Shown piece after piece: positions 5,852-56,721 of a stretch of DNA of 64,000 nt. Under the pieces are notes generated by a model. That model was given only the letters and a program-made list of their open reading frames with translations, was not told the DNA's origin and ran no database searches. Source of the DNA: an uncultured virus (IMG/VR IMGVR_UViG_3300001460_000018) (Duplodnaviria > Heunggongvirae > Uroviricota > Caudoviricetes); IMG/VR virus record IMGVR_UViG_3300001460_000018, positions 1 to 64,000 of that record; one strand, 5' to 3'. Both the position numbers and the translations under genes were made by a program. Position 1 is the stretch's first letter; each line of letters opens with the position of its first letter.

Positions 5852-7375
5852 ATGAAATTCACACTATCACATAATAATAGGATTCTTACTTTAGTAGATG
5901 CTGATAGGACTGAAAAAGGGCAACTCCAAAAATCATTAACAAAAAAACTAGAATACTATAATTTTTTACCTAACCCAGTTAAGGCAAAATGGAATGGTAT
6001 AATATCATATTTTCATCAAGATAAGTATGTGCCATCAGGATTATGGATGGAGCTTAGAGAAGTTGCTAAAAAATATCGTTATGATATTGAAATAGACGGT
6101 TTAAGAAATCTTTTTTATGATTTGGAATTTAACGAATTTAGTGAATGGGTAAATAGCAAATTTGAAGATGCTACTGATAAAAAAGGTGAACCGTTTGCTC
6201 CTAGAGATTATCAAATTAACTCTGCCTATAAAATACTTAAATATAAATTATCTATTAGTGAACTTGCTACCAGTGCAGGAAAATCTTTAATCATTTATAT
6301 AGCATTTTCATATTTATTAGATAAAGGATTATCTAAAAAATGTCTTATGATTGTACCTACAATCAATTTAGTAATACAAGCATTTGAAGACTTTCATGAA
6401 TATAATAGCTTTTTAAAACCTAATAATAAAACACTATTAGAAATAAAGCAAATTCATGGAGGAGAATCAAAAGAATATACATATGACCAAAATATTTTCG
6501 TAGGAACATTTCAAAGTCTAGTTAAATTTTCTGATAGTTTCTTATCGGCATTTGATACTATATGCTGTGATGAAACTCATAAAGTAAAAGCAAAATCAAT
6601 TCAAGATATTTTAGGAAGGTGTCATAGTGCAGATAGAAGATTTGGTCTAACAGGTACAGTACCTAAAAAAGGAACTCTTGATTGGCTAACATTACAAGCA
6701 TATCTAGGTCCACTTATTACTGAAATAAAAGCAAAAGAACTTCAAGATAAAGGTCATATATCTAAGCTTTTTATAAATGTTTTAGAATTACATCACTCAG
6801 ATAAAATAAAAGAATCTTTTGATGAAATCACAGCAACAATAGATGACAAATCAAAGCTTCTTAGAATGGAGCAAGATGTTATCATACAAAATAAACAACG
6901 TATTGAAGTTATAAAAAGAGTTGTTGATAAATGTAAAGGCAATGAATTAGTACTATTTCATAGAACAGTATATGGCAAGGACCTTTATAAATATATAAAT
7001 GAAAATACTAATAAGAAAGTTTATTACATTGATGGCGGGGTTGATAAAAACGCTAGGAATGAAATCAAACATCTTATGGAACATGGGAAAGATAAAGTTC
7101 TTGTAGCATCTTATGGTACTTTTTCTACTGGAATTAATGTAAAAAATATACATTACATACACTTAACTGAAAGTTTTAAAAGTGATATAATTATAAGACA
7201 AAGTTTAGGTAGAGGATTAAGACTTCACGATGATAAGGCTATATTATATGTTTTTGATTATACTGACATTTTAAGAAGTACTAAAAAGAATTTAGTATAC
7301 TTTCATGGCAAGGCAAGACAGAAAATATATAAAGAACAAAAGTTTCCATATAAAATAAAAGAAATATATTTATGA
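5852..7375 (+). CDS. uvsW: SF2 DNA helicase UvsW
   Basis: PRDYQ, ATSAGKS, DETH, GLTGT, STGINVKN, QSLGRGLR. Confidence 0.93.
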   Translation: MKFTLSHNNRILTLVDADRTEKGQLQKSLTKKLEYYNFLPNPVKAKWNGIISYFHQDKYVPSGLWMELREVAKKYRYDIEIDGLRNLFYDLEFNEFSEWVNSKFEDATDKKGEPFAPRDYQINSAYKILKYKLSISELATSAGKSLIIYIAFSYLLDKGLSKKCLMIVPTINLVIQAFEDFHEYNSFLKPNNKTLLEIKQIHGGESKEYTYDQNIFVGTFQSLVKFSDSFLSAFDTICCDETHKVKAKSIQDILGRCHSADRRFGLTGTVPKKGTLDWLTLQAYLGPLITEIKAKELQDKGHISKLFINVLELHHSDKIKESFDEITATIDDKSKLLRMEQDVIIQNKQRIEVIKRVVDKCKGNELVLFHRTVYGKDLYKYINENTNKKVYYIDGGVDKNARNEIKHLMEHGKDKVLVASYGTFSTGINVKNIHYIHLTESFKSDIIIRQSLGRGLRLHDDKAILYVFDYTDILRSTKKNLVYFHGKARQKIYKEQKFPYKIKEIYL

Positions 7376-8034
7376 AGAGGTTAAAAAAATTTATTAATCA
7401 ATCTAAATTATATCCTATTGGTACTATACCTAATGTAATGGTTGAAAACAGTCAATATGATCTTTTAGGACAAGTTGCATATTTTATTAAAAATACATAT
7501 GGAGAAAAAGAATATAAAATTCTTCAAGATGCGGGAGTAGTAAGTTTACAAGATGGTGATATTACTGTTAATATTACAACAATAGAAAAACCTGAAGGAA
7601 CTCACGCAGATTCAATTACTAAAGTGCTAAGAGGTTGGCTATTAAGTTATAAAAAATATGATGGCCTTAAAGAAGATATTAAAACTAAAACCAAAATGGT
7701 TAAAGAATTTGCTGATAGCATACTAAAGAAGTTTCCTGTTGAAGATATTAAATTATCCTATTATCCAATAACAACTAATGAAGATGTTATTATGCTAAAT
7801 TATTTAGAAGTAAATAAAACTCATAAAAATAGTGGAATAGGATCAAGAATCATGGAAGATCTTATTAAATTTGCAGATAACCAAAGTTTTATATTAACTC
7901 TTGATACAACAGATAAATTTGGAAGCTCAACATCTAGACTTAAAGAATTTTATAAAAGATTTGGATTTAAAGAAAATAAAGAAAAGCGGTTTAATAAGGA
8001 AATGGTTAGAATGCCTGTGAATGGAATTAAATAA
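7372..8034 (+). CDS. Protein with a C-terminal GNAT acetyltransferase domain and a capsid-targeting-like N-terminus
   Basis: LEVNKTHKNSGIGSRIM (acetyl-CoA motif A) and LKEFYKRFGF; begins MKRLKKFINQ. Confidence 0.7.
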   Translation: MKRLKKFINQSKLYPIGTIPNVMVENSQYDLLGQVAYFIKNTYGEKEYKILQDAGVVSLQDGDITVNITTIEKPEGTHADSITKVLRGWLLSYKKYDGLKEDIKTKTKMVKEFADSILKKFPVEDIKLSYYPITTNEDVIMLNYLEVNKTHKNSGIGSRIMEDLIKFADNQSFILTLDTTDKFGSSTSRLKEFYKRFGFKENKEKRFNKEMVRMPVNGIK

Positions 8035-8070
8035 ATAGATTAAATATAAAAACAAAAAATAAAACTCACT

Positions 8071-8685
8071 ATGAGAAGTTTAGGACAAATTATACTAGAA
8101 GAAGAGAAGTCTAAAAAGCAAAAAGAATATGCAGATTTCTTTAAAGAAAAATTAGCTGAGTACGGCGCGGATTCACCTGCTGACTTATCTACTGGAGAAA
8201 AGAAAAAATTCTTTAACGAAATAGAATCAGAATGGGACGGAGAAGTTTCAGAAATGGTAAAAGCAGATAACGAAGACCAAGAAAATGGAAACGGTGCTGG
8301 CAAAGAGGTTTCTAAAGATATGGGTGATGGNGATGAATCATCTGATGAAATAGAAGATAAAGAAGTAGCAAAAGGTAAACCAACAAAATCCGGAGATGGT
8401 GATGAAGTTGTTAATGATGACCAAGAAATAACTGCAAAAGTTACTGAAGCATTATCAGGAATTACTGAAGCAGGAGATGTTAAGCTTATGAAAAGAAAAC
8501 TTGACTCTATTGTAGGATCTACACTAAAGAAGATTATCGATGAATTAGCTAAGAAAGGTTTTTCAAAAGAGGAAATCGAAAAGTATATGGAGATTGTTGT
8601 TTCTGATAGAGTTGAAGAATCTTTTAAAAAGGTTAATGAATCAGATGCAGACGGTGAAGGAAATATGGCATCCACTGAAAAATAA
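8071..8685 (+). CDS. Acidic putative internal head protein, modular
   Basis: TAAATA upstream; ILE/ITE/VNE sites; shares a 60-aa module with ORF 9440. Confidence 0.65.
   Translation: MRSLGQIILEEEKSKKQKEYADFFKEKLAEYGADSPADLSTGEKKKFFNEIESEWDGEVSEMVKADNEDQENGNGAGKEVSKDMGDXDESSDEIEDKEVAKGKPTKSGDGDEVVNDDQEITAKVTEALSGITEAGDVKLMKRKLDSIVGSTLKKIIDELAKKGFSKEEIEKYMEIVVSDRVEESFKKVNESDADGEGNMASTEK
8467..8647 (+). repeat. Duplicated coding module, copy 1 (copy 2 at 10034-10214)
   Basis: EAGDVKLMKRKLDSIVGSTL.KIIDELAKKGFSKEEIEKY..IVVSDRVEESF.KVNESD in both genes; both copies 181 nt. Confidence 0.95.
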
Positions 8686-8698
8686 AAAATAGTTTAAG

Positions 8699-9427
8699 AT
8701 GAAAAGTTATAAAAGTTTTGTTAATGAAGCAAAGCATGTTAATGATAATTTTACAGATGCACAGATTAAATATGCACAAGATGTCATGATGAAGACAGGT
8801 TTATTACAAAATCCTAAACTTGAACTTAACATGGATGGAAGAAAGGAATTTCCTGTTTTAAAGTTTGATTTTACTGCTAAAGCTCTTAAAGATATTAAAG
8901 TATATGATGACGATAATGGATATTCATCATTTACTGATGAAGATGATCCAAAAACTGCAAAGATTAGAAATATTATAAAGAAGGCAGGCGAATCAATATC
9001 TAAAAAAGGAAAAAAAGCTAAAGCATTTTTGCCAGGATTTAGCGTAGGTGGTACTCCAACTGTTAGCGTAATATTACTAGGTGTTGATATTCCAATGAAT
9101 GAATCAGTTAATGAATCTGATGTATCGGTATCTAAAGCATCTCAGGGTGTTGCTATAGATTTTAATGGTGAATCTGAAATGGTTTTTGATGAAGATGAGA
9201 TTAGTACTTTAATTTCAGTACTATCAAATTTTAATAAGACAGGTAAAGTTAAAAACACATCAATCCAAGATATTGATAGATATGACGCTAATATATCCAA
9301 AGCAGGTAATGGAATTGCAATAGAATATCCTATACCATTTAGTGAAGATGATGAAACTGCTGATGTTATTTTAAGTAAAGGAAAGGATGTTGAAAAGTTT
9401 ATAAATGACTTATTGAAAATAAAATAA
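8699..9427 (+). CDS. Putative capsid-targeted internal polyprotein (MKSYKSFVNE)
   Basis: N-terminus resembles the T4 IP capsid-targeting sequence; internal MNESVNES junction. Confidence 0.7.
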   Translation: MKSYKSFVNEAKHVNDNFTDAQIKYAQDVMMKTGLLQNPKLELNMDGRKEFPVLKFDFTAKALKDIKVYDDDNGYSSFTDEDDPKTAKIRNIIKKAGESISKKGKKAKAFLPGFSVGGTPTVSVILLGVDIPMNESVNESDVSVSKASQGVAIDFNGESEMVFDEDEISTLISVLSNFNKTGKVKNTSIQDIDRYDANISKAGNGIAIEYPIPFSEDDETADVILSKGKDVEKFINDLLKIK

Positions 9428-9439
9428 AAAAGATTTAAA

Positions 9440-10444
9440 ATGAAAAGTTATAAAAGGTTTATAAATAAAAGCAAGTCTGTTAATGAAATGTATGGACTTG
9501 ACCAGGATATTGCAATGGAAATCATTAATGCAGCTGGTCAATATACAAGCGATGCAGATGAGGCAGCTAACCAAATGTGGGATAGCGCAGAGGAACTTAT
9601 TAGTTACCTAAAATCTGACCATATTCCTAAAAAATATCATAAGGCATTTGATAAAGGCGTGGCAAGATTTGCTAACGAATCAGTTAATGAATCAGCTAAG
9701 TTAGTAGATGAAAAAACCGGAAAAGTTGTTAAATTACCTTATAAGACTAAAGACTTTAGAGGTGATGCTATTGTAGTTAAAGGTTTTTCTGAACCTCGTC
9801 ATTCAGCATCAAGCGGTAGAATACAAACAGATCAAGGGGAATTTTTTCCAGGCGTAGCAGGTCTTAAAATTGTAGGACATCAATTTGAATCTGTTAAAGA
9901 AGGAAATGCATTCAGTGCTGCTAGAGCTAAGGCAATTGCAAATGACGAAAAAACATTTAAAGTCGGTGATGAAGAATACGATGTTGAGGATGTTGATGCT
10001 GAAGATAAAGAAAATGCTGAAGAGTTTATTGGTGAAGCAGGCGATGTTAAGCTTATGAAAAGAAAACTTGACTCTATTGTAGGAAGTACTTTAACAAAGA
10101 TAATCGATGAATTGGCTAAGAAAGGATTCTCAAAAGAAGAAATTGAGAAATACTTAGGAATTGTTGTTTCTGATAGAGTTGAAGAATCTTTTGGGAAGGT
10201 TAATGAATCTGATGTACCATCAGAGCTTGCTGATTATGCTGGGGAATTATCTGAAATTGAATTTGATGATTTTGATGAATCTACTGCGGCTCAATTAAAA
10301 AAATTATCTAAGAAAATGTCTTTTGTTATCGGAGATGAATCCATATCTGGAATGATGACAATGAAAGATGTAATTAAAATACTTAAATCAAATAATATAA
10401 AATTCGTTGAAGTTAATGGAGATGAATCTATGATTGTATTTTAA
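9440..10444 (+). CDS. Putative capsid-targeted internal polyprotein (MKSYKRFINKSKSVNE)
   Basis: About five modules separated by SVNE, ANESVNE, ESVKE, FIGE, KVNE. Confidence 0.7.
   Translation: MKSYKRFINKSKSVNEMYGLDQDIAMEIINAAGQYTSDADEAANQMWDSAEELISYLKSDHIPKKYHKAFDKGVARFANESVNESAKLVDEKTGKVVKLPYKTKDFRGDAIVVKGFSEPRHSASSGRIQTDQGEFFPGVAGLKIVGHQFESVKEGNAFSAARAKAIANDEKTFKVGDEEYDVEDVDAEDKENAEEFIGEAGDVKLMKRKLDSIVGSTLTKIIDELAKKGFSKEEIEKYLGIVVSDRVEESFGKVNESDVPSELADYAGELSEIEFDDFDESTAAQLKKLSKKMSFVIGDESISGMMTMKDVIKILKSNNIKFVEVNGDESMIVF
10034..10214 (+). repeat. Duplicated coding module, copy 2
   Basis: Near-identical to 8467-8647. Confidence 0.95.
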
Positions 10445-10469
10445 ATCATCAAAAATAAAAACATTTAAA

Positions 10470-11453
10470 ATGAAGAGTTATAAAAGCTTTTTAAACGAAA
10501 GAAGAACTATTCAAGTTAAGAGAAAATATGGAAAGTATGCATCAACAGTAGTTGGTGCAAATGCTCCAGTTAGACAAAAAATTCTTGGATTTGTATCTGA
10601 GCAAGGATCTTGTTGTAAAACTGACTTAATGGAATACATTAAATCTGCTAATGAAGAGAGCGGTAGAAAAACTAGTCCTCAGTGGATTAAAAAGAATTCC
10701 AGATATTTAGTAACTTTTGAGAAAAATGGCGAAACTCATTATAAATTATCAAAACTTGGTAAAAGAGTAATTAATGCCACAAATATTAATGAATCAAATA
10801 ATGATTATGTTGAGGAAATTGGAGATCTTGAAGAATTAATTTATGATCAAGGTGATATGAGAACTACTGCAAAGTGGGATGATGAATCTGAAGTACTTTT
10901 ACAAGGTAATATAACCTGGGCAGAACTAGATGTTACTGATTTAAGAAATGCAATTGATATGGCGAGAGATTTTATGAGAAAGCATAAGATCAAAGAATCA
11001 TTAGTTGTTGAAAATGCTGCTCAGGCTGCTAAGGATTTTGCCGATCTTAGAGCGTTAATTAAAGATGATGCAGATGGTGAACATATTTACAGTATGATCA
11101 TGAAAGATGATAGCAAAAAAATTCGCACTTTAACAAAAGATCTTAGAGCATTATATAATAAACTTTATAGATATATGAATATGTCTGAAGAGTCTGGAGT
11201 TAATGAAGGAAATACTATAGATTCACCGTATCTTCAAAGACAACTTGAGTTTACTATTAAAGATATAGAAAAAGATGAGCCTGATGTTGCTAGCGTTTTA
11301 AATGATTTATCAAGTAGATTAGATCAGTCATATCCACAAGGCGATGTAGATATGAAAATAATTTCAAGTATCTTAAAAGAGCCTAATATTAAAAAGGACT
11401 ACGCTAAAGTTAGTGGTGATGTTGATTTTTATTTAAGCCAAGCTCTTAATTAG
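10470..11453 (+). CDS. Putative capsid-targeted internal polyprotein (MKSYKSFLNE); first module basic and winged-helix-like
   Basis: ATG 10470 preferred over 10434; junctions NINES, IKESLVVEN, GVNEG; HYKLSKLGKRV resembles a wHTH wing. Confidence 0.7.
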   Translation: MKSYKSFLNERRTIQVKRKYGKYASTVVGANAPVRQKILGFVSEQGSCCKTDLMEYIKSANEESGRKTSPQWIKKNSRYLVTFEKNGETHYKLSKLGKRVINATNINESNNDYVEEIGDLEELIYDQGDMRTTAKWDDESEVLLQGNITWAELDVTDLRNAIDMARDFMRKHKIKESLVVENAAQAAKDFADLRALIKDDADGEHIYSMIMKDDSKKIRTLTKDLRALYNKLYRYMNMSEESGVNEGNTIDSPYLQRQLEFTIKDIEKDEPDVASVLNDLSSRLDQSYPQGDVDMKIISSILKEPNIKKDYAKVSGDVDFYLSQALN

Positions 11454-11482
11454 CATCTTAAATTCTAATAATAAATATTATA

Positions 11483-11505
11483 AGGACGGTCTTCGGACCG
11501 TCTTT
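11483..11505 (+). terminator. Terminator hairpin with TTCG loop
   Basis: AGGACGGTC-TTCG-GACCGTCTTT. Confidence 0.85.
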
Positions 11506-11544
11506 GTTGTTTAATTAAATATTAAAACTATAAATTCGTAAAGA

Positions 11545-12738
11545 ATGAAGGAAATAAAAGATTTCTATAACGAACTAGGTGAAGACTTTCTGAAGCAACT
11601 TCTTAATTCAAATGTAAAAGTATCTGAAAAACTTACTGGAACTAAATTTGGATTTAAGAAAAGCAACAATGAATTAATATTTTTTGCTAGAGATAAGAGA
11701 TATCCTCTTAATAAAATACAAAGAACTATAACATCTCTATATGAAAAGCCTATTGCTCATATAAATTCATTAGATTTATCAAAAATTCCTGATGAAGTAT
11801 TCTTCTTTTTTGAATATTTTTATAATAATAAGCCTACTAATGTTATATATGAAAATATTCCTAAGAATGGACTTATATTAACACATCTAATAGGATTAGA
11901 AGATAAAGATGATAATTCTATTATAAATGACACTAAAACACTTCTTAAGTGGTCAAAACTTCTTAAAACATCTACACCTAAAGTGTATTTTAATGGAGAG
12001 TTAAGCGAATTACAAAAAGAAAAGATTTTGAATTTTATAAAAACTGATAAGTCTGATTTAATGATTAGTTTTAACACAAATAGTTTTACACGACATATTA
12101 TTAAAATTTTAAATCCTAGATTAAAGAAAACTACATTAAATGGAGACATTGACAAATCTATTGAAGGTTTTATATTTGAGTTTAGCAACAATGATAAAGT
12201 TTACACAGCAAAAACTATAGATCCGATATTTCATCAACTATCATTACATAAAAAAGTTAATAAATCTTCATCAGATGAAATAGGATTATTGATATATAAG
12301 TTCATTGAATGGCTTGGTGAAACTGATTCAATGACAAAGGTAAATGCAATAGGAAGTAGTCCTGATGAAAGATATATAGATTTATTAAGTACATTAATAT
12401 CAATGTTCATAGATGATAATTCTATTTTTATAGAAGACTTTGATTTAAAGAAACCTACATTTGCTTTAATGCCTGAGTTTAAACTTAATACATCATTTAT
12501 AAAGAATAAAAAAATACAAGATATTATTAATAATAACCCAAATCTTGCAGATATTTATAAAATACTATTTTCATCATTTAGAAAAGAGCGTAAAAAAATT
12601 ACTCCAATTATAGATATAAATATGAAAAAGTATATAAATAATTATGTAAGGCTAATACATTCAAAGATTGCTAAAGAAACTATAAATGAAAACTATTATA
12701 GTTTTAGTGATTGGCGAAAATTTAAAAACAAAAAATAA
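11545..12738 (+). CDS. RNA-ligase/nucleotidyltransferase-fold protein with variant motif I
   Basis: VSEKLTG (canonical EKxDG), FFEYF, IEGFIF, downstream Lys in AKTID. Confidence 0.5.
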   Translation: MKEIKDFYNELGEDFLKQLLNSNVKVSEKLTGTKFGFKKSNNELIFFARDKRYPLNKIQRTITSLYEKPIAHINSLDLSKIPDEVFFFFEYFYNNKPTNVIYENIPKNGLILTHLIGLEDKDDNSIINDTKTLLKWSKLLKTSTPKVYFNGELSELQKEKILNFIKTDKSDLMISFNTNSFTRHIIKILNPRLKKTTLNGDIDKSIEGFIFEFSNNDKVYTAKTIDPIFHQLSLHKKVNKSSSDEIGLLIYKFIEWLGETDSMTKVNAIGSSPDERYIDLLSTLISMFIDDNSIFIEDFDLKKPTFALMPEFKLNTSFIKNKKIQDIINNNPNLADIYKILFSSFRKERKKITPIIDINMKKYINNYVRLIHSKIAKETINENYYSFSDWRKFKNKK

Positions 12739-13016: not shown

Positions 13017-13682
13017 ATGAAAGATCTTGATAATTTTTATTCCGTGAATATTAATGAATCTTTGGAAAATGCTAAAAAAACTATAGAAAAAAAGTTAGGA
13101 AAGTTTACCCAAGGATTTGAAATATACATAGATGATAGTAATAAAAAAGATACTCTCATAATAAGTATAGATGAATTGGTTAAAGCTGGCGCTGAATACC
13201 CAGACATTCAAAAAGTCATTGATTCTGCTGTTAAGAAATATAGACTTAAGTTAGATAATTCATCTAATGATAGTGTTGTGTTTTTAACCGAAGGTGTATC
13301 AGATACACTAGATGAAGTTTCAGAAAAAATGGGAATGATGTTTACTATACTTAAAAGTAAATTAAGAGACGCTGCTAAACTACTTAAAAACTCTGATGAT
13401 AGAGAAGAGTTTTATAAAATGGTTAAAGATTTTATTGAATCTAAAACTGGCATAGAAGTTATGGAAAATTTAGATTCTTTGCTTGAGAGAGCTGATTCTA
13501 AAGCACAGCGAAGGTTATTTGCTATTGCACTTCAATATAAGAGAGGCAATATAACAAAAGAAGAATTAGAACCTGAATATGCTGAAGAAATTATTAAAAT
13601 TTCTGAGCTTCCTGAAAAAACGTTAAGAAAGTTTGCAAAGACTAAGGAAAAAGGACTTCCACATTATGTAGACAAAAAATAA
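13017..13682 (+). CDS. Putative internal head polyprotein with a C-terminal DUF3008-like module
   Basis: MKDLDNFYSVNINES; LLE then SKAQRRLFAIALQYKRG...LRKFAKTKEKGLP. Confidence 0.6.
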   Translation: MKDLDNFYSVNINESLENAKKTIEKKLGKFTQGFEIYIDDSNKKDTLIISIDELVKAGAEYPDIQKVIDSAVKKYRLKLDNSSNDSVVFLTEGVSDTLDEVSEKMGMMFTILKSKLRDAAKLLKNSDDREEFYKMVKDFIESKTGIEVMENLDSLLERADSKAQRRLFAIALQYKRGNITKEELEPEYAEEIIKISELPEKTLRKFAKTKEKGLPHYVDKK

Positions 13683-17207: not shown

Positions 17208-17453
17208 ATGACAATAAATTTAGAAACTATACTAGGTTTAGAATTAGTTGGTGAAGAAATAGATACCTTTATTACTATCTTAAAAAGAATACATGAATCA
17301 TCTTTAAAAGACGATAGCATAGGATTCAAGAGTGATAAACCAAACATTATTGAATTTACTGATGACGAGATTGGTTTAGTAAATTTAATATATGAAAACT
17401 TTAAACCTGTAGACAACCCTAAAGATGATACTAGCGACAGAGCAAACACATAA
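17208..17453 (+). CDS. Small hypothetical protein
   Basis: ORF tightly packed between dUTPase and polymerase. Confidence 0.55.
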   Translation: MTINLETILGLELVGEEIDTFITILKRIHESSLKDDSIGFKSDKPNIIEFTDDEIGLVNLIYENFKPVDNPKDDTSDRANT

Positions 17454-18894
17454 GATAGTAAAAATATCTTATATAGAAAATAATGAACGTAAATTTATAG
17501 ATGTACCTAAAGAAAATTTTTGGTATTGGGATGAATGTAAATCAGCAAAAGCAGATAAAACATTCAAATCTTATTTAGGAAAGCCAGTAAAGAAAAACTA
17601 TGAAAAGGCTAGTAAATATAATATAAATAAGTTTTCTATATGGGAATGGATTAATACACAGCCTAAAGAGTTGCAAAATACTCTATATAAATTAGCATTT
17701 CCTAAAATGCTATTTTGTGATATTGAGACCGAGGTCATTGATGGATTTCCTGATGTAAATGTAGCAAAAGAAAAAGTAACCACTATTACTTTTACTTATG
17801 TGGATAAAAATAAAAAGATTCAAAGCATCACTGTTGGATATAAAGAAGATTTTAATCATGAGCAGCAAAATAAGATGCAAGGATTTATTGATGACTATTT
17901 TACATCAGTAAATAACAATAGACCTATAGTTTTTAAATATAAGAAAGTTAATAATGAAACTGAGCTTCTTCAATTTTTTATAGAAATATGTAAAAAGTTT
18001 CATATTATAACAGGATGGTATTTTGAAGACTTTGATTGGCCTTATCTAAAAAGAAGAATGATGAATCTTGGTTTAGATTATAAACAAATATCACCAACCA
18101 ATACATTAGATAGATATAATAACCCTAATCATTTTGTAATCATTGATTACATGAAAGTGTTTGAAAAGAATGATAAAACTATTAGAGTTAAAGAATCATT
18201 AAGCCTTGAATTTATATCTAATGCTGTGTTAGGTGTAGGTAAATTAAAATATGGCGGGACATTACAAGAAATGTATGAAAATGATTATAAGAAATATGTT
18301 CTCTATAATAATGTAGATACAATTAATGTATTATTAATTCATGACACTTGTAAAACTCTTAATGCATTATTAGCATTATCAAATATGTCAGCATGCGAAG
18401 TTGCTAAATGTCAATCAGCAGTAAACATTACTGAAGGATTAATGTCAAAAGGATATTTAGCAGAATATAAAGTAATTCCAAAAAAATCAGGCAGAGGAAA
18501 TGAAAAAGAAGAATATGTAGGTGCATATGTTAAAGCGCCTATTACTGGAATGCACGGTGCTGCAACATGCTTTGACTTTAGTTCACTATATCCATCCATT
18601 GCTCGTCAGTTAAATTTATCACCTGAATCATTTATAGGTAAAAATACACCTAATATGACAGATAAGTATGGAAAAGAAGAATCTTTTGATAAGTATAAAG
18701 AATTATCTAAAAAAATAGATAGATCTAATAATAAAGAAATTATATCTATATCAGGTTGTAAATTTACAACAAATGGGAGTACTCTTAAGACCATTTTTGA
18801 TAATTTATATGCACAACGTAAAATTGACCAAACTAGATTTAAGAAATGTGATAAGCTTGCACATGAATTAAAACAAAAGCTTAAACAAATGTAA
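17425..18894 (+). CDS. Family B DNA polymerase, N-terminal part (3'-5' exonuclease plus motif A), gp43A-like
   Basis: DIETE, FDWPYL, YNNVD, FDFSSLYPSI; ends in the fingers helix. Confidence 0.92.
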   Translation: MILATEQTHKIVKISYIENNERKFIDVPKENFWYWDECKSAKADKTFKSYLGKPVKKNYEKASKYNINKFSIWEWINTQPKELQNTLYKLAFPKMLFCDIETEVIDGFPDVNVAKEKVTTITFTYVDKNKKIQSITVGYKEDFNHEQQNKMQGFIDDYFTSVNNNRPIVFKYKKVNNETELLQFFIEICKKFHIITGWYFEDFDWPYLKRRMMNLGLDYKQISPTNTLDRYNNPNHFVIIDYMKVFEKNDKTIRVKESLSLEFISNAVLGVGKLKYGGTLQEMYENDYKKYVLYNNVDTINVLLIHDTCKTLNALLALSNMSACEVAKCQSAVNITEGLMSKGYLAEYKVIPKKSGRGNEKEEYVGAYVKAPITGMHGAATCFDFSSLYPSIARQLNLSPESFIGKNTPNMTDKYGKEESFDKYKELSKKIDRSNNKEIISISGCKFTTNGSTLKTIFDNLYAQRKIDQTRFKKCDKLAHELKQKLKQM

Positions 18895-18927: not shown

Positions 18928-19686
18928 ATGAAAAAAGTAGAATTAACTGGAGTAAATGTAACAGAGTTTACAAAATTTATTGGAATGCTTGCTAAATTAA
19001 GCTCAGCTAGCACAGTGTACTTTACAATTGACAATGATAAGATAATTTCAGATTCTTATATTGAGAGTAAGTCACTGATTAAATCACTAAGATACAAATT
19101 ATCAGATTTCTTTGAAGAAGATACTATTAATAGTGTTGTAAAATGTACTTTTTATAGTGGTAAAAAACTTGCTGATGCATTTTCATACCTCAATGGGAAT
19201 GACATAAGAATCACTATTGATTATAATGAATATGAATCTGAAAATTTTGCAACTAGATTTGTTATAACTGATGGTAAATTAAAAGTTACTCTTAAAGGTG
19301 GTGATCCTGCATTAATTGAATTTGTTAGTGTTCCTCAGAAAGCTATTGATACTTTAACTAATTGTGATTCTGCTGGGAATTCATTTCAGATAACATCTAA
19401 TGAATTAAAGCAAATTAAAAGTTTAGAGAAGTTTGATACCAATCCTTACATTACATTCTCAATTAATGGAAGTATTAAAGTTAAATCAGAAAATTCTTTT
19501 GAAATTGACATTAATGATAACATGGATCAAGTTTCAACTGAAGGTGAATATAAAGTAGATAAGACTTTAATGGCATTAGTTGAAAATGAAACTTATTCAG
19601 CATATACATTTGATGATAAAATAATCTTAAAGAGCGTAGATGAAAAGATTATAAATGTAGTTGCTTTAACTGATACAGTTGATTAA
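18928..19686 (+). CDS. Sliding clamp (T4 gp45/PCNA-like)
   Basis: 252 aa with a two-domain alpha/beta pattern (FQITSNELKQI, NSFEIDI); sits between the polymerase halves. Confidence 0.65.
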   Translation: MKKVELTGVNVTEFTKFIGMLAKLSSASTVYFTIDNDKIISDSYIESKSLIKSLRYKLSDFFEEDTINSVVKCTFYSGKKLADAFSYLNGNDIRITIDYNEYESENFATRFVITDGKLKVTLKGGDPALIEFVSVPQKAIDTLTNCDSAGNSFQITSNELKQIKSLEKFDTNPYITFSINGSIKVKSENSFEIDINDNMDQVSTEGEYKVDKTLMALVENETYSAYTFDDKIILKSVDEKIINVVALTDTVD

Positions 19687-20903
19687 TGATTAATATATCA
19701 GAAATTCATACTGATGAGCTGGATAGTGTTGACTTTAATTCTTTAAGTAAACAAGAATTGGTTAACACTATTCATCAGCTTGAAAATGAAGCTCTTGTGT
19801 ATGACACTATGCAAATGGCCGAAAAAATTGCACTTAACAGTATTTATGGTGCATTAGGTAATGAGCATTTTAGATTCTTTGATGTTAGATTAGCAGAAGC
19901 AATCACATTACAAGGACAAGATGCAATTAAGTATAGTGAAACTGTTCTAAATCAATATTTCTGGAAAGCATTTCATAGAGATAAAGAACTTCTTAATGCA
20001 CTTAAAGAAAAATGCCCAGATGTTATAACAGAAAATGTAAAGCCATGTGAAAATCCTGTAGTTGTTTATATGGACACAGATTCTTGCTATGCAACATTTC
20101 AAGAAGCATTGGATAATGTTAATTGGACAGGTCATGTAAATGATTTTGTTCTTACTATGACAGACGCAAGATTAGGTAGTTATTTAACAAATGCATTTGA
20201 AAAATATGCAAAGCATTATAATACAGATAATTACTTAATGTTTGAATTAGAATCTATAGCATATCATGGGATTTGGACAGCAAAGAAAAAGTATGTTCAA
20301 GAAATGGCATGGGCAGATGGTAAAATTTATGAACCTCTCCAAAAAATTAAAGCAACTGGATTAGAAATGATTCAAGCACAAACTCCAGCATTTTGTAGAA
20401 ATATTCTTGCTGATGTAGTAAAGTGGATGTTTAAGAAAGGTGCTTCTTTTGAAATTAAGGATTTGGCTAATGAATTATCTAGCATAAAGAAGCAATTTCT
20501 AATATCAGATATAGATGATATTTCTAAAAACACATCTATAGGTGATTATAATAAATTTATATTAGAAGATGAAGCATCTCTAGAAATAGGTCCTCACTGT
20601 CCTGCACACGTTAGAGGAGCAGGTGTACATAATCATTTACTTAATAAAAATCCAAAGCTAAAGAATAAGTATGATAGCCTAAGATCAGGTGATAAGGTTA
20701 AGTGGTATTATGCAGCAAGTATATCTGAAAAGTTTGATAAATTTTCATATAGGCGAGGAGATCACCCTAAAGAGTTTGCTTTGGCTATGGATTATGATAC
20801 TCAATTTGAGAAAACTTTACTGGGTCCAGTAAATAACATCATAGAGGCAATGAAATATAAACCACTTACAGCGAGTCTTCATACTGCTAAAAAATTATTT
20901 TAA
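19686..20903 (+). CDS. Family B DNA polymerase, C-terminal part (motifs B and C), gp43B-like
   Basis: KIALNSIYGALGN, YMDTDS, KKKY, KATGLE. Confidence 0.92.
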   Translation: MINISEIHTDELDSVDFNSLSKQELVNTIHQLENEALVYDTMQMAEKIALNSIYGALGNEHFRFFDVRLAEAITLQGQDAIKYSETVLNQYFWKAFHRDKELLNALKEKCPDVITENVKPCENPVVVYMDTDSCYATFQEALDNVNWTGHVNDFVLTMTDARLGSYLTNAFEKYAKHYNTDNYLMFELESIAYHGIWTAKKKYVQEMAWADGKIYEPLQKIKATGLEMIQAQTPAFCRNILADVVKWMFKKGASFEIKDLANELSSIKKQFLISDIDDISKNTSIGDYNKFILEDEASLEIGPHCPAHVRGAGVHNHLLNKNPKLKNKYDSLRSGDKVKWYYAASISEKFDKFSYRRGDHPKEFALAMDYDTQFEKTLLGPVNNIIEAMKYKPLTASLHTAKKLF

Positions 20904-29310: not shown

Positions 29311-29886
29311 ATGAAGAGTTATAAAAGCTTTTTAAATGAAAATTACGACAAAGAAACTATCAAACAAATAAAGAAGTCTAAGAATTTTTCTAAGAAAGAT
29401 AAGAAAGATATTATTACAATTTCAGAAATTTGGGGGTTAATTGATACTTGTCATGAAGAAGTACTTGCAAAAACAAGAAATGTTAAAGTACCAGAACACA
29501 AAAGGTTAATTGATGAAGCAGAAGATGATTTGAATGCAATTAGAATTTCATTGAATGATTTCTTGGCTGATAAAGAAGAATTACTTGATGAAGCAAAGCA
29601 TGTTAATGAAGCAGATATATCTGGAAGCAAAATTAGCATGCTTGGAACTAAAATCTTCAATAAAATAAAGATTGGTTCTAAGTTTAACACAGACACTAAT
29701 GTTTATACTGTTAAAGACTTTGGTAGAGCATCAAATGCATTTAAAGAATATATCGTAACTGATAAAAATGGTAAAGATATTGGTGCTAAGCTTAGCGCTA
29801 TGTACAGTACTACCTTTGCTCTTTCTGATGATCCAAGAAGTTTAGTATTTAGAAAAGAAGAAATGCTTAATTCTATAACCATATAA
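29311..29886 (+). CDS. Putative capsid-targeted internal polyprotein (MKSYKSFLNE)
   Basis: Same N-terminus as ORF 10470; junction LDEAKHVNEA. Confidence 0.7.
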   Translation: MKSYKSFLNENYDKETIKQIKKSKNFSKKDKKDIITISEIWGLIDTCHEEVLAKTRNVKVPEHKRLIDEAEDDLNAIRISLNDFLADKEELLDEAKHVNEADISGSKISMLGTKIFNKIKIGSKFNTDTNVYTVKDFGRASNAFKEYIVTDKNGKDIGAKLSAMYSTTFALSDDPRSLVFRKEEMLNSITI

Positions 29887-29904: not shown

Positions 29905-30492
29905 ATGAAAGGATATAGAGAGTTCTTAAATGAATCAAAAGAATCATATAATGATAAGGGTTTTTGGAATGGTGTTAGCAAGGAATTAGCTAAACAGCTT
30001 AAACCATATAAAGTAAAATTAGCTAAATTTAGAGTTGATAAGTATTCAAGAACAATTACATATGAATTCAAACAACGTGCAAACTCATTTATTTTAGAGA
30101 TAGCGCATGATTGGGGTAGAGATGGCAGTGAAGGTAAACCTGATACAACATTTACAGTTAATGTATCTGATGGAGAAACTTTTACTGAGGATTTAGGTAG
30201 ATTTGCAATATGGGATGAGCTTAATTATGTAGCTGAGGATATTATTAATGTAATGAAATCTATGGAAGGTGAGGAACTTGCTCAATGGATATTTGAATCT
30301 GTAGTTAATGAATCATGTGATGTACATAGCTCTTATGATGAAGACTGTGATGATTGTGTTGCAGGTGAAACTAATGAAAAAGAGTTTAAACCCCATATGA
30401 TGTATGATACTGAAACAGGAAAAGCATATAAAGCAGAAAAACCTGAAGATCATGAGAGAATGTCTAAGTTAGGATATACTCATAAAAAATAG
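29905..30492 (+). CDS. Putative capsid-targeted internal polyprotein (MKGYREFLNE)
   Basis: Junctions IFESVVNES and ETNE. Confidence 0.7.
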   Translation: MKGYREFLNESKESYNDKGFWNGVSKELAKQLKPYKVKLAKFRVDKYSRTITYEFKQRANSFILEIAHDWGRDGSEGKPDTTFTVNVSDGETFTEDLGRFAIWDELNYVAEDIINVMKSMEGEELAQWIFESVVNESCDVHSSYDEDCDDCVAGETNEKEFKPHMMYDTETGKAYKAEKPEDHERMSKLGYTHKK

Positions 30493-32527: not shown

Positions 32528-34174
32528 ATGGCAAGTATATATAAAAGCTTAAAAACAATAAAAACTGGAGGGAGTACATTTAACTCACCTTCACTAAGAA
32601 ATCTTGCAGGGAAAGGATTTGATTATAAGGATTCTGTTATACTAAACTCTGAGGCTATTGGTAGTTTAGAAAATGAATTAGGATGGCAACAAAACAATTC
32701 ACTTCTTCGATACGGCCAAGATAATGTTGACTTAAATGATCTTTATAATTTTGCAGCTGCAGATGTTTATAGCAAAAAGAACATTCCATTTTTTGACCAG
32801 GAATATCCTGCTAAAAGAGATCAGTTAAGAAAATATAGTTTACAAGATGAAATTGAACAAATTTTAGATATTCTTGTAGATGAACTAATTGTGTATGACA
32901 CAAAGAAATACTTTGCTAATATTAAATGGGAAGAAGATCTTAATATAAAAAAATCAGAAAGAAAACGAATTAATGAAACGCTATCTTCTAATTTTAGAAA
33001 GATGTATAGAATGTTCGGCTTTAAGAATGAAAATACTGCATGGCATTATGGTAAAAAATATGCAGTAGATGGTTACCTATCATTTGAAATTATTTGGGAT
33101 AGATCTAATAAGAATATTATTGGATTTAAAGAACTTGATCCAATTTCACTAACACCTAAAGTGTTTAAAGATGGTACAAGAGGTTGGATCCAATATGATA
33201 ATGATCCTATTAAAGCTAGAGAACTTAATGATTCCCAGGTTATTTTATTATCATATTCTGCAATTAATAGCGAAGGTAGAATTTCATATGCTGAAAGGCT
33301 TGTAAGATCATTTAATCTTTTAAGAATCATGGAACAGTCAAGAATTATTTGGTCTGTTGTAAATTCTTCATATAAAACTAAATTTATTATACCTGTAGCA
33401 GGTAAATCTAAAAACATTGCAAAGCAAACAGTATCTAACTTAATGCAAGCATATAGAGAAAACATTAATTTTGATACAGATAGCGGTGAATTAGAAGTTA
33501 ATGGTAAACCAATGTTACCGTTCAATAAAGAATATTGGGTTCCTGAAGGTGATAGTGGAACTCCACAGATTGAAACCATTGGCGGTGAAGGTCCTGATTT
33601 ATCAGACACAGGTCAATTAGAATACTTTAGAGATAAATTAATATCAGTTTCTAAATTACCTAAAAACCGATTTATTAAAGATGAATCTCCTACATGGGAA
33701 TCTTCACCTGAAGGATATACCAGAGAAGAAATATATTTTGAGCGGTTTTTAAGTAGAATACGAGCACAATTTCAAGAAATTTTAGTCAAGCCTACTATAT
33801 TACAAACTAAAGTAGATATTATAGAACTTAAAGATGACCCAAGCTTTGATGCTGATGTTTATTTAGATTGGTCTAAATATGATGTATTTGAAGAAATTAA
33901 AGAAATGGAAATGTTTAAAGCAAGAATTGATGTTATATCATCTGCTAAAGATTCATTAGTTGACTTTGATGAAGAAGGTAATGAAGTTAGATACTTCTCT
34001 AATGAATACCTTGTTAAAAAGTATTTAAAAATGACAGAAGATGAAATCCGCCTTAATGAGCAATTAAAGACTAAAGAAGATGAAGAAATAAATACAAATA
34101 ATAAAGAAGGTGACGAAGGTGAAGATAGCGAAAAAGATAGTAAACCTGATACAGATTTGGATTTAGGCTTCTAA
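32528..34174 (+). CDS. Portal protein (T4 gp20-like)
   Basis: YAVDG, ELDP, FNLLRIMEQ, EYWVP, TQ/PQIETIGG, REEIYF. Confidence 0.92.
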   Translation: MASIYKSLKTIKTGGSTFNSPSLRNLAGKGFDYKDSVILNSEAIGSLENELGWQQNNSLLRYGQDNVDLNDLYNFAAADVYSKKNIPFFDQEYPAKRDQLRKYSLQDEIEQILDILVDELIVYDTKKYFANIKWEEDLNIKKSERKRINETLSSNFRKMYRMFGFKNENTAWHYGKKYAVDGYLSFEIIWDRSNKNIIGFKELDPISLTPKVFKDGTRGWIQYDNDPIKARELNDSQVILLSYSAINSEGRISYAERLVRSFNLLRIMEQSRIIWSVVNSSYKTKFIIPVAGKSKNIAKQTVSNLMQAYRENINFDTDSGELEVNGKPMLPFNKEYWVPEGDSGTPQIETIGGEGPDLSDTGQLEYFRDKLISVSKLPKNRFIKDESPTWESSPEGYTREEIYFERFLSRIRAQFQEILVKPTILQTKVDIIELKDDPSFDADVYLDWSKYDVFEEIKEMEMFKARIDVISSAKDSLVDFDEEGNEVRYFSNEYLVKKYLKMTEDEIRLNEQLKTKEDEEINTNNKEGDEGEDSEKDSKPDTDLDLGF

Positions 34175-34234: not shown

Positions 34235-35869
34235 ATGAAAGAATTATTATTAGTAGAAAAATCATCAACCAGTATTGGGAAAACATCTGATCCTTATACA
34301 CTTGAGGGTATGTTTACTGAGTTAGGTGAAGAAAATAGAAATGGTCGAATTTATACTAAGGATGGTTTTTTACCTCACTTAACACAATTACAAAAGGTAG
34401 TTGAGCAAGGTAAAGCTGTAGGTGAATTAGATCACCCTAAGGTTTTTGAAACAAGCTTAAAAAATTCTTCTCATGTTATAGAGAAAATTTGGTTTGATGA
34501 AAAAGATAATAAAGTATACGGTAGAATAAAGTTACTTGATACAGATGCAGGAAAAAATGCAAAGGCATTAGTTGATGCAGGAGTACCTCTTCATATATCA
34601 TCAAGAGCTGCAGGTACAGTAACTGAAGATAAGTCTGTAAAGATTCATAAATTATTTACATATGATTTAGTTGCAGACCCTGGATTTGAAAATGCAGTAT
34701 TAAATACAGTTAACGAATCTTATGGTATTGAAAATGCAAAATCTTCAAACTTTTTTATGTATGAAGTTGCAGAATCTAAATTATCTAAGAAGCCTGTAAT
34801 AGATAACCAGAAGTTTATATCTGAAGATGATCTTAACGGATTTACAAAATACACTAAAGAAACTATTGATTCTCTTAAAGAAAACCTTGATAAATTACAG
34901 AAAGCACAAAATGCAATTATTAAGCAAAATGATGAAATTGCTGATAATATCAATAGTAATGTATTACAGGAATCTATAAATTTAATTAATGATAAGATTA
35001 AAGGTATTGAGGATTGGTCTAATCATGTAGTTGAAGAGTTCACTACAATTAAATCAGAATCTGATAGAATTAAAGTTCTTGAAGATAAACTAACAGGAAT
35101 CGAAAATTGGTCTGAGCATGTTACTGAAACTGTATCAGGAATCGAAAATTGGTCTGAGCATGTTACTGAAACTGTATCAGGAATCGAAGATTGGTCTGAA
35201 CATGTTACTGAAACTGTTACTGCAATCGAAGATTGGTCCGATGAAGCAACTACTACAGTATCAGGAATCGAAAATTGGTCTGAGCATGTTACTGAAACTG
35301 TATCAGGAATCGAAGATTGGTCTGAACATGTTACTGAAACTGTTACTGGGATTGAGAAGTGGTCTGATGAAGCAACTGATGTTGTAACAAAATTAGAAGA
35401 AGGCGCACTTACAGAAAATCCAATAAAACGTAAAAAGAAAGTTGATGTTTCTTTATCTGAAACATATATAACTGGATTATATAAAAAAATTGATTCTATT
35501 ATCGATGATGCTAAGAAGCAAAAAGCTGAAGAGAAACAAGAATTAGTAAAAGAGGAAAATGAGTTTAATAAAACTGAGGAACCTTTCTGGAAATCAATGA
35601 TGCCAGGAAAATACACAGAATTATGGGAAGCATTATCTGAATCTAAAAAATCATCAATTGTTAAAAGAGCTACAATTTGTGAATTTCTAACTGAAAGTTC
35701 TGTTACAGAATTTTGGAATGCAACATTTGCTAACACTACAATTGAAATGATTAAAGAATCTTCAAAGATGCCAGTGCAAAAAACTGCTGAGGAAGTAGAA
35801 AATGCAATAGCAGCTAGAAGACTAAGAATTGTTGAAGGCTATAATAAAAACTTCAAAACAAATCATTAA
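34235..35869 (+). CDS. Prohead protease (gp21-like) fused to a coiled-coil scaffold (gp22-like)
   Basis: NRNGRIY, GELDHP, ISSRAAG, TYDLVADPGF; long acidic C-terminal region with repeats. Confidence 0.9.
   Translation: MKELLLVEKSSTSIGKTSDPYTLEGMFTELGEENRNGRIYTKDGFLPHLTQLQKVVEQGKAVGELDHPKVFETSLKNSSHVIEKIWFDEKDNKVYGRIKLLDTDAGKNAKALVDAGVPLHISSRAAGTVTEDKSVKIHKLFTYDLVADPGFENAVLNTVNESYGIENAKSSNFFMYEVAESKLSKKPVIDNQKFISEDDLNGFTKYTKETIDSLKENLDKLQKAQNAIIKQNDEIADNINSNVLQESINLINDKIKGIEDWSNHVVEEFTTIKSESDRIKVLEDKLTGIENWSEHVTETVSGIENWSEHVTETVSGIEDWSEHVTETVTAIEDWSDEATTTVSGIENWSEHVTETVSGIEDWSEHVTETVTGIEKWSDEATDVVTKLEEGALTENPIKRKKKVDVSLSETYITGLYKKIDSIIDDAKKQKAEEKQELVKEENEFNKTEEPFWKSMMPGKYTELWEALSESKKSSIVKRATICEFLTESSVTEFWNATFANTTIEMIKESSKMPVQKTAEEVENAIAARRLRIVEGYNKNFKTNH
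35095..35388 (+). repeat. 7 x 42-bp in-frame tandem repeat (GIENWSEHVTETVS)
   Basis: Units read directly, pattern A-A-B-C-A-B-C'. Confidence 0.95.
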
Positions 35870-47266: not shown

Positions 47267-47686
47267 ATGGATAATAGTGAATTTAAAAGTGGAGCAAGAT
47301 ACTTTTCAAACGTAGAAAATGTCTTAAAGAGTATAAAAAATATTCAATCAACTATTCATAAACCAGGTGTAAGATCTTCAGATGAATATCCGTTAGCGAA
47401 CTCGTTTAACCTATCATCTAATAATGAAAAGCTTTTAATTAATATGGTTAAAGGGCTTGCTAGTATTATTGATACTCAAAATGATATTTTAAAATATATC
47501 GTATCACATGATAGTAAAGCAATTATAGATGAATCATCTGAAGCTGTTACTCCTGGGCAGTTTTTTATACTTAAGACTCTTGAAACAATCGTAGTAGTTA
47601 AAGAACGAATTAATAAAGATAATGTAAAGGTACATATAATTTCAAAAAGCATAGATAAAATTGTAAATATTAAAGACTTAGAATAA
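47267..47686 (+). CDS. Hypothetical protein
   Basis: ORF coupled to ClpP through TAATG. Confidence 0.55.
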   Translation: MDNSEFKSGARYFSNVENVLKSIKNIQSTIHKPGVRSSDEYPLANSFNLSSNNEKLLINMVKGLASIIDTQNDILKYIVSHDSKAIIDESSEAVTPGQFFILKTLETIVVVKERINKDNVKVHIISKSIDKIVNIKDLE

Positions 47687-48246
47687 TGAATGCACTACCT
47701 ATTCCAATGGAAAGATCCATTATGTTTAGCTCTCAAGTAGACCAAAAGACTATAGGAGCGTTAACTCAAAAAATTTTAGATATTAATAATAATGATGAAT
47801 ATCTAAAGAAGCTTTATAAAATCAATAACTTAGAATATAGCCCATCTCCTGTTAAAATATACATAGATTCATATGGAGGACAAGTCTATCAAATACTTGG
47901 TCTTGTTTCAGTTATAGAAAAATCAAAAACACCTATACATACAATATGCACAGGGGCTGCTATGAGTTGTGGGTTTGTATTACTTATATGTGGTCATAAG
48001 AGGTTTGCATATGAACACTCTACTCCTCTATATCACCAAGTGTCTTCACGGGCTTCTGGTACAGTTAAAGATATGGAAGAAAGTATTAAACAATCAAAAA
48101 ATCTTTTAAAGAAATTAGAAAAAATAACAATTAAGTACACTAATATTACTAAGAAAAAACTAAAGAAAGTTTATAAAAGAAAACAAGATTGGTATTTAAA
48201 ATCTAGTGAAGCATTAGAGCTTGGTGTTATTGATGAAATTATTTAA
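47686..48246 (+). CDS. ClpP-like serine protease
   Basis: IYIDSYGG, AAMSCG (catalytic Ser), YHQ, WYLKSSEALELGVIDEI. Confidence 0.9.
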   Translation: MNALPIPMERSIMFSSQVDQKTIGALTQKILDINNNDEYLKKLYKINNLEYSPSPVKIYIDSYGGQVYQILGLVSVIEKSKTPIHTICTGAAMSCGFVLLICGHKRFAYEHSTPLYHQVSSRASGTVKDMEESIKQSKNLLKKLEKITIKYTNITKKKLKKVYKRKQDWYLKSSEALELGVIDEII

Positions 48247-56640: not shown

Positions 56641-56721
56641 TTAAACAAAATAAAAAATTGTGTATTTAATATATTGTAAAATATCTGAAAGAATCTGAGA
56701 CTCTGATTCTTCTAGAGCAAC
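56641..56721 (+). repeat. Copy 2 of the ~80-bp non-coding element (promoter TAAACA-N15-TATTTAA plus dyad)
   Basis: Inverted match to 1657-1736. Confidence 0.9.

Follow-up and report, generated by a model that had tools for sequence, protein, structure and literature searches.

A module shared in frame by two neighboring genes and bounded by predicted cleavage linkers, in a hypervariable cluster for probable capsid-targeted head proteins of an uncultured marine myovirus

Internal proteins (IPs) of the phage head are injected together with the DNA, those of T4 counter host defences, and the loci that encode them rank among the most variable in T4-type genomes. Motifs at the IP loci of T-even phages were reportedly described by Repoila et al. 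in 1994. Here, we analyzed a 64,000-nucleotide stretch of DNA (hereafter, the window) of the virus record IMGVR_UViG_3300001460_000018 (IMG/VR), the source of which is an uncultured marine myovirus, a distant relative of T4. The window covers the initial 64 kb of a contig of 76,225 bp, and the same DNA lies within a 171,834-bp IMG/VR record. Two genes of a hypervariable cluster in the window (gene A and gene C) share a module of ~57 residues, designated M4, which is predicted to form two helices. These genes probably encode modular, capsid-targeted head proteins that are shuffled at the linkers between their modules. The edges of M4 and of two further modules, M2 and M3, in homologous proteins support an in-frame exchange of modules at linkers that are predicted to be cleaved.

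In T4, the capsid-targeting sequence consists, as described in PMC9026906, of the first 10 residues, which are sufficient for targeting; residues 4 and 7 play a part in targeting and residues 8 and 10 in processing, and the proteases of T4 type and phiKZ type cleave after Glu with few other determinants. The T4 IPs are presented as small, basic, single proteins that undergo one cut, at the leader, and are encoded by poorly conserved genes in variable loci (PMC9026906, PMC3012670); T-even phages are known to have IP loci that vary while the leader is conserved (PMC3012670, PMC9026906). For the head and ejection proteins of phiKZ-like giant phages (phiKZ gp175, SPN3US gp245) and for the T4 core proteins gp22, gp67, and gp68, short motifs that are cleaved after Glu are described, with several sites per propeptide, and giant phages carry paralogous head-protein families of varying number (PMC5694885, PMC9026906). 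The motifs of these giant-phage and T4 proteins are (S/A/G)-x-E, and the passages on these motifs in the two sources report neither module or paralogue edges at the sites nor uniform site DNA. Conserved cassettes that shuffle whole genes are known in T4-type phages (PMC2839356, PMC4122927). In the gp38 adhesin of T4-type phages, exchanges frequently fall inside or close to its best-conserved motifs, according to PMC3157838.

The cluster shares with the T4 proteins IPI, IPII, IPIII, and Alt the leader pattern M-K-x-Y-x-x-F-hydrophobic-x-E, a gp21-family protease encoded in the same genome, and low conservation of genes that occupy a variable locus. In contrast to the T4 IPs, its products would be acidic multi-module precursors with several internal candidate sites and a preferred hydrophobic-N-E. 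As in shuffling of PeSL type, a variable cluster lies between core genes, and the gene starts share a conserved stretch analogous to T-even IP-locus elements (PMC2839356). However, PeSLs lie between genes, consist of a promoter and a stem-loop, and act as cassettes by which entire genes are moved, whereas the units here are intragenic modules with in-frame linkers. No hairpins were found between the cluster genes, and no conserved element of promoter plus stem-loop borders the exchanged units; the only terminator-like hairpin is located at the cluster end (11480-11507). The likeness to gp38 is that conserved short coding motifs, here hydrophobic-x-E linkers, separate variable, exchangeable segments in frame (PMC3157838). 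The glycine-rich motifs of gp38 are a structural core and not protease sites, and its units are loops of one domain and not domains. The locus is best filed with the modular shuffling of T4-type phages, relative to which the sub-genic units, the candidate cleavage-site linkers, and the occurrence in a large uncultured marine family are new. A limited literature search found no papers that connect the DNA of protease sites with recombination in the head proteins of phages.

The comparison of the contig with itself (blastn) aligned 8466-8647 with 10033-10214 (182 nt, 86.8% identity, E 2e-42), and a separate repeat search returned the same repeat at 8461-8647 and 10028-10214 (86%). This pair is the only long dispersed (non-tandem) repeat of the 76-kb contig. 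M4 copy A (E-AGDVKL...KVNE-SD; 8467..8646, plus strand) is located in gene A (8071..8685) and copy B (10034..10213, plus strand) in gene C (9440..10444), both in frame 0 of their genes. The similarity starts at ATT..GAA (ITE and IGE in the two proteins) and ends after GTTAATGAATC.GAT (VNESD). Codon by codon, the 25 upstream and 12 downstream positions mostly showed two or three mismatches each, which means that the flanks are unrelated. This agrees with the original prediction, made from the letters of the window, that the similarity runs from the Glu of ITE/IGE to KVNESD. The same prediction had described the pair as near-identical over 181 nt; the repeat is real, but near-identity is confined to its ends, with 98% at 8467-8517, 74.7% in the center (8518-8592), and 92.6% at 8593-8646. 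Of 60 codons, 42 were identical, 14 differed synonymously, and 4 changed the residue, so both copies are under purifying selection. Among residue-identical codons, synonymous differences numbered 1/17, 12/22, and 1/17 along the module (ends versus center, P = 6.5e-5). Contigs of an independent sample (X5) matched the center of both copies with zero differences, which shows that the uneven identity did not arise in the assembly of this contig.

Gene C (plus strand, 334 aa) is a mosaic, and its product begins MKSYKRFINKSKSVNE. The search with this product, the open reading frame (ORF) 9440, returned 189 proteins, almost all of marine metagenomic origin, that individually spanned 10-49% of the query. 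The alignment edges clustered at residues 82, 150, and 200. The layout comprises a targeting peptide (residues 1-16), M1 (17-84), M2 (85-150), the linker SVKE, M3 (155-199), M4 (200-256), and M5 (257-334). In an AlphaFold2 model built with 53 sequences, M2, M3, and M4 were confident cores (block means of the predicted local distance difference test, pLDDT, 88-94), and pLDDT fell below 50 at residues 69-84, 151-155, and 199-201, which are the linkers. M4 was predicted as two helices (residues 202-227 and 232-253), and a Foldseek search of the model against the PDB gave no match at E <= 0.001. M2 (9692..9889, plus strand) is beta-rich with pLDDT ~90.

Profiles of M2 and M3, with module limits set from the window's own sites, were run over 134 proteins. 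M2 was present in 61 of these, and M3 (GNAF...EEFIGE, acidic; 9902..10036, plus strand) in 142 copies in 81 proteins, often in tandem. Hydrophobic-x-E lay within one residue of the M2 start in 56 of 60 evaluable left edges. Glu directly preceded GNAF in all 139 evaluable M3 copies, and the full hydrophobic-x-E did so in 111 of them, compared with a background of 0.040 per residue for the motif and 12% of family residues for Glu. The same motif stood just before (A/G)G in 8/8 carriers of M4. The residues around these edges were diverse, with 27 and 55 distinct left 5-mers in the M2 and M3 contexts, and the linkers themselves also varied (e.g., VVNEA, SLTEA, KVEEA, and GVYEA). M3 also closes fusions of a gp21-type protease with a scaffold part (P0115), and in one related locus (L003, 4960-6237) it is located near the C-terminus of a 425-aa coiled-coil protein that adjoins the capsid gene, followed by AKEELPKKI(K/E)LY. 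This placement suggests a scaffold or core role of M3.

The cluster is anchored on the left by a conserved helicase gene (5852..7375, plus strand) and on the right by the conserved gene g11545 (11545..12738, plus strand). Between these anchors, syntenic loci of relatives differ in their sets of genes and modules. One locus (L005) has only homologues of gene A and of gene D (g10470; 10470..11453, plus strand, 327 aa, start MKSYKSFLNE), and another (L006) additionally has an acetyltransferase gene, read as two ORFs. Two loci (L007 and L008) have short genes with leaders as well as a hybrid that includes the N-domain of gene A, and a further one (L002) encodes a protein of 740 aa in which SV.IE-S.EINE-A linkers flank M2 on either side. 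The part of gene D after KIKE176|S is variable among relatives. Its homologue in L005 shared 73% identity as far as KIKESL(I/V)(I/V)E and showed no relation beyond, and in L007 the stop follows directly after TTINE.

Contigs, not reads, of four other marine runs were compared with the window over 7000-12000. In X2 and X3, which belong to two studies, the contig joins 10998 to 11443, with the in-frame loss of 444 nt (10999-11442) of gene D. The loss, a strain-level variant, begins one nucleotide past codon E176 (KIKE|S), so that the remaining product ends in ...KESLN-stop, and the joint has a 1-nt overlap and no copy of the 9-mer GTTAATGAA, which encodes VNE. In X4, a 436-nt contig matched 9458-9691 at 97% and resumed at 9887; thus, M2 (195 nt) is either missing or exchanged for no more than 162 unlike bases. 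The break in X4 falls on the last base of GTTAATGAA at 9683-9691. One contig joint begins at the last base of the 9-mer (9691) and another 1 nt after a GAA codon; in these few contig events, the positions of the edges are as the original prediction of module gain or loss at the sites would have it. Three weak joints, 8638 to 11459 (X5, side 21), 9753 to 11901 (X2 and X5, side 21), and 7228 to 7316 (X4, side 27), were not used because of their short sides and a likeness of 85%, and they may come from other organisms.

Short exact repeats also occur in the window. The 22-nt sequence at 8724-8745 (plus strand, E-AKHVN-D/E) recurs with 100% identity at 29588-29609, where the two genes read NEAKHVND and DEAKHVNE; no 22-mer pair arose when the contig was simulated 30 times with a second-order Markov model, which bears out this junction repeat as exact and beyond chance. 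A 17-mer is present at 9101-9117 and 9677-9693, reading NESVNES in frame in both cases. Its copy at 9101 was placed correctly in the original prediction, but the partner starts at 9677 and not at 9678, and its length is at chance level (~2 pairs per simulated contig). An 18-mer, GTTAATGAATCTGATGTA, occurs at 9107-9124 and 10199-10216 (0.33 expected). The 9-mer GTTAATGAA, said to recur at many junctions, indeed had 12 matches in the window versus 1.75 expected, and 0 of 100 shuffles reached 12. One match (8632..8640, plus strand) is the right edge of M4 copy A, and further sites are at 8720, 9107, 9479, 9683, 10199, 11199, 28992, 29602, and 30304.

In line with the original prediction, the codons of VNE at the junctions were more uniform than elsewhere in this phage. 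In the 76-kb contig, VNE was encoded as GTTAATGAA in 10/10 cases in genes with a T4-like leader and their neighbor (9/9 when a 559-aa ORF without targeting peptide was omitted), compared with 0/5 in other genes. In a further leader-gene cluster of the same phage (G001:152252-156428), GTTAATGAA accounted for 3/5 VNE, and for 1/1 in a non-head ORF there. The combined shares were 13/15 in capsid-targeted genes and 1/6 elsewhere (Fisher P = 0.006). The expected share was 0.33 from genome codon use, 0.39 from the same genes outside VNE, and 0.32 from a codon-pair model, which gives binomial P values of 2e-5 to 2e-4 (~2e-5 under the codon-pair model) for a sample of 15 sites in one genome, some of which are related by descent. 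In relatives, by contrast, the junction VNE had mixed codons, with 1/7 as GTTAATGAA, which is the background level (orthologues in L012 and L013 counted once). The uniformity is real but comes from a small sample. It is not explained by protein-level selection and fits concerted evolution or copying of linker DNA. Because the flanks of the GTTAATGAA copies vary, wholesale copying of a longer linker does not by itself account for the 9-mer. An out-of-frame reading, in which GTTAATGAA would be a remnant of TAATG stop-start junctions between genes, was set aside for want of a test.

We regard it as doubtful that the cleavage-site DNA itself (GTTAATGAA with its near flanks) is the substrate of recombination, such that modules are swapped, duplicated, and deleted as cassettes and the exchange keeps the site uniform. 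It is equally hard to credit that the cleavage-site codons are a built-in, in-frame recombination signal, whose uniformity at module edges lets the phage's own recombination shuffle the modules between genes with frame and processing sites intact. The excess of the 9-mer in the window, its uniform use for VNE in differing flanks, and the X4 contig that loses similarity exactly at 9691 are as expected of such DNA, and the synonymous sites of M4 are best conserved at its ends, beside the sites. Precedents in T4-type phages are the gp38 exchanges at conserved motifs and the cassettes that flank shuffled genes (PMC3157838, PMC2839356). However, the codons are mixed in relatives, the linkers vary greatly between contexts, the clean 444-nt deletion had a 1-nt overlap only, and the left edge of M4 is ATT-NNT-GAA and not the 9-mer. 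The identity pattern of M4 shows that breakpoints also lie inside the module and are not limited to Glu sites, and the uniformity was counted on related sites of a single genome. Furthermore, 9 nt is far below the length of homology at which T4 recombination is efficient. Of the original proposal that the site DNA acts as microhomology for in-frame cassettes, module exchange at linkers is supported, whereas the role of the DNA as substrate is a minority reading.

The history of M4 bears on a further account, in which the sharp edges are due solely to a recent conversion between two copies of long standing. Since conversion cannot enter non-homologous flanks, the edges would then be uninformative on the arrival of M4, on which this account is silent. 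Full-length homologues of gene A (56-67% identity; P0084 and P0121-P0124) already have the C-terminal M4. P0002 consists of a gene-A-type N-domain, M3, and M4, with the M3/M4 joint VGE|AGD as in ORF 9440, and proteins resembling the front of ORF 9440 stop soon after M3 (P0088 and P0012). As the homologues already carry both architectures, both contexts of M4 predate this genome, as conversion between old copies requires. At the protein level, the two copies were 93% identical, compared with 54-81% to the M4 of homologues. Together with the patchy identity, this indicates that M4 probably underwent recent homologous exchange, between the two copies or with a co-infecting relative. Conversion thus explains the high identity, but it does not explain the older edges of M4, M2, and M3 at Glu linkers in many contexts. 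As the whole explanation it is improbable; it is compatible with the exchange of modules at linkers and forms part of that explanation.

M4 is rare. An exhaustive search with the 60-aa query among 1.84 billion representatives gave three clusters at E <= 1e-10, with 8 proteins in all, and only P0001, P0070, and P0002 were convincing matches. Scans for loci with the M4 alignment returned three viral-contig and four metagenome-contig loci, which belong to this phage itself or to a single family with 61% identity. P0132-P0134 were rejected as relatives of M4, being unrelated repeat proteins with a KG(F/Y)S..E(L/I) helix motif, and a Pfam PASTA match on M4 was dismissed (E 0.007, below the cut-off). 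No contigs that unite the two M4 copies were found, which is uninformative because contigs lose rare variants.

The assignment of the cluster genes to the head is based on their leaders and on the protease of the phage. T4 IPII and IPIII begin MKTYQEFIAE (T4 record), and the leaders in the window keep M1, K2, Y4, F7, the hydrophobic residue 8, and E10 of this pattern. The residues needed for targeting (4 and 7) and for processing (8 and 10) are thus present, with gene A (204 aa, pI 4.5) as a variant that starts with MRSLGQIILE, followed by a conserved N-domain, an acidic linker, and the C-terminal M4. A relative of gene A in L007 has MKNLTKFINE before the same mature domain. Gene B (8699..9427, plus strand, 242 aa) starts with MKSYKSFVNE and has the internal linker PMNESVNESD; the search for its homologues, by which the edge rule was to be tested blindly, returned only itself and was uninformative. 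In a second cluster, located just upstream of the head genes, the genes at 29311..29886 and 29905..30492 (both plus strand) start with MKSYKSFLNE and MKGYREFLNE, respectively. Five gene starts (8699, 9440, 10470, 29311, and 29905) share ~45-66 nt that comprise an A-rich motif, the ATG, and the leader codons. The same phage encodes a gp21-family (Peptidase S77) prohead protease. The gene at 34235-35869 (plus strand; PHROG 207 at 1e-41 and PF03420 at 1.4e-11) carries the Peptidase_S77 domain at residues 21-133, fused to a long coiled-coil, and its product is the presumed enzyme for the Glu sites. From the leader and this protease, we infer that the cluster genes encode capsid-targeted internal head proteins, which would be packaged and cleaved.

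Four cluster genes had no match to Pfam or PHROG families. No homology of the mature parts to IPI, IPII, or IPIII was detected by Pfam, PHROG, or tblastn (ORF 9440 against 50,697 phage records), which weighs little because the T4 IPs are mutually unrelated beyond the leader. That the products are merely paralogous, acidic, linker-rich proteins that arose by ordinary domain duplication and are neither in the head nor cleaved, with the likeness of the leader and the Glu-rich linkers as coincidental features of flexible spacers, is very unlikely: the abundance of Glu makes hydrophobic-x-E common, packaging and cleavage are predictions, and the family and fold searches were negative, but six leader positions match T4 IPII/IPIII, including all four that matter, Glu is invariant at the M3 edges far above its 12% share, M3 is found on protease/scaffold fusions and in a gene beside the capsid gene, and the second cluster adjoins the head genes.

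Exchange at the linkers would operate as follows. The precursors would be strings of small folded modules joined by hydrophobic-x-Glu linkers, most often (S/K)-V-N-E-(S/A/G), a motif that fits the known specificity of T4-type prohead proteases. The 10-residue T4-like leader would carry the precursors into the prohead, where the protease would remove the leader and separate the modules. Over evolutionary time, recombination would duplicate modules, delete them, and move them between genes and phages, and the surviving joints would be in linkers because only there are the frame, the domain folds, and the sites for processing all preserved. Both copies of M4 would still exchange sequence by homologous recombination, which would account for their near-identical ends and diverged center. 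The edge rule requires no role at the DNA level, because it is explained by selection that keeps domains, frame, and processing intact.

Several points weigh against this explanation. Head packaging and cleavage at the Glu sites are predictions from the leader and protease sequences. The precursors are acidic, with a pI of 4.5-5.5 in 5/7 genes of MKxY/MRSL type, in contrast to the basic T4 IPIII (pI 9.5). The limits of the profiled modules came from the window, so the M2 and M3 counts show that the site travels with the module and not where homology exactly ends. The rarity of M4 makes the direct comparative evidence for this module thin. Finally, selection alone fails to predict the uniform VNE codons (13/15, P ~2e-5).

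Exchange at the linkers suggests that, in a large uncultured group of marine myoviruses, the unit of exchange is a small protease-released domain and not a gene. One precursor could then deliver several independent products, and in-frame swaps would provide new combinations. If the cleavage takes place, a T4-like leader followed by modules bracketed by hydrophobic-x-Glu would serve as a rule to find injected phage proteins in metagenomes. The uniform site codons are a testable hint of coupled functions at the protein and DNA levels. If they were a recombination signal, one short sequence would be both protease site and DNA exchange site, and the diversity of injected proteins would be combinatorial.

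The first gene of the variable cluster (7372..8034, plus strand) encodes a GNAT acetyltransferase (PF13508 and PF00583 above the cut-off) with a targeting-like start, MKRLKKFINQ, and the product may be a packaged or injected enzyme. In relatives, the gene is present as the two ORFs of L006 or, in L007, only as a 78-aa N-part with MKHLCYFLNE. Outside the window, the further cluster of the same phage (L015, G001:C1:152252-156428) is a third set of leader genes, with the starts MKSLKE.., MKSLNEHKEINE, MRSLDEHKLINE, MKSLFEYYKIIE, and MKSLYKFYKLDE. A 400-aa protein of this cluster contains an internal tandem duplication (nt 29-371 versus 344-715, 69.7%), both units of which start with (I/V)NE|AKKRY and end with ES.VNE. 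A 221-aa protein encoded at 13017-13682 starts with MKDLDNFYSVNINE and has a C-terminal DUF3008 (2.9e-07); short DUF3008-like pieces with leaders of their own are present in L007 (7387-7605) and L015. Inside the prohead protease gene, 35044-35442 consists of seven tandem 42-nt units in the coiled-coil part, corresponding to 14-residue repeats GIE(N/D)WSEHVTETVS, and each repeat of this protease/scaffold protein contains a V-T-E motif.

The scans of 70 ORFs against PHROG and Pfam named many T4-type core genes. The portal (32528-34174) precedes the prohead protease gene, which is followed by the gene for a gp23-type major capsid protein (35887-37572, plus strand), with MLNE and SSSLNE in its N-terminal leader. 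The phage also encodes sheath, tube, UvsX, clamp loader, gp46/47-type nuclease, a DNA polymerase in two parts, and topoisomerase II. The best matches of the capsid protein among the 50,697 phage records were an uncultured 462-kb phage (47.6%) and Lak phages (~33%). In the same records, neither blastn of 7300-11500 nor tblastn of the ORF 9440 product gave a match. The G+C content is 26-36%, and sequencing runs with this locus come from marine or viral metagenomes.

The DNA polymerase is split between 17425-18894 and 19686-20903, with a 252-aa ORF without assignment between the parts (18928-19686). Besides the gp21-type prohead protease, a ClpP-family protease is encoded at 47686-48246 (PF00574, 6.8e-27). 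A 61-nt inverted repeat (90% identity) has its arms at 1661-1720 and 56657-56717, 55 kb apart and outside long ORFs. A 964-aa ORF on the minus strand (48419-51313), with no family match, contains two internal repeats, one of tandem 255-nt units (49175-49684, 78%) and one of 151-nt units (50069-50399, 86%).

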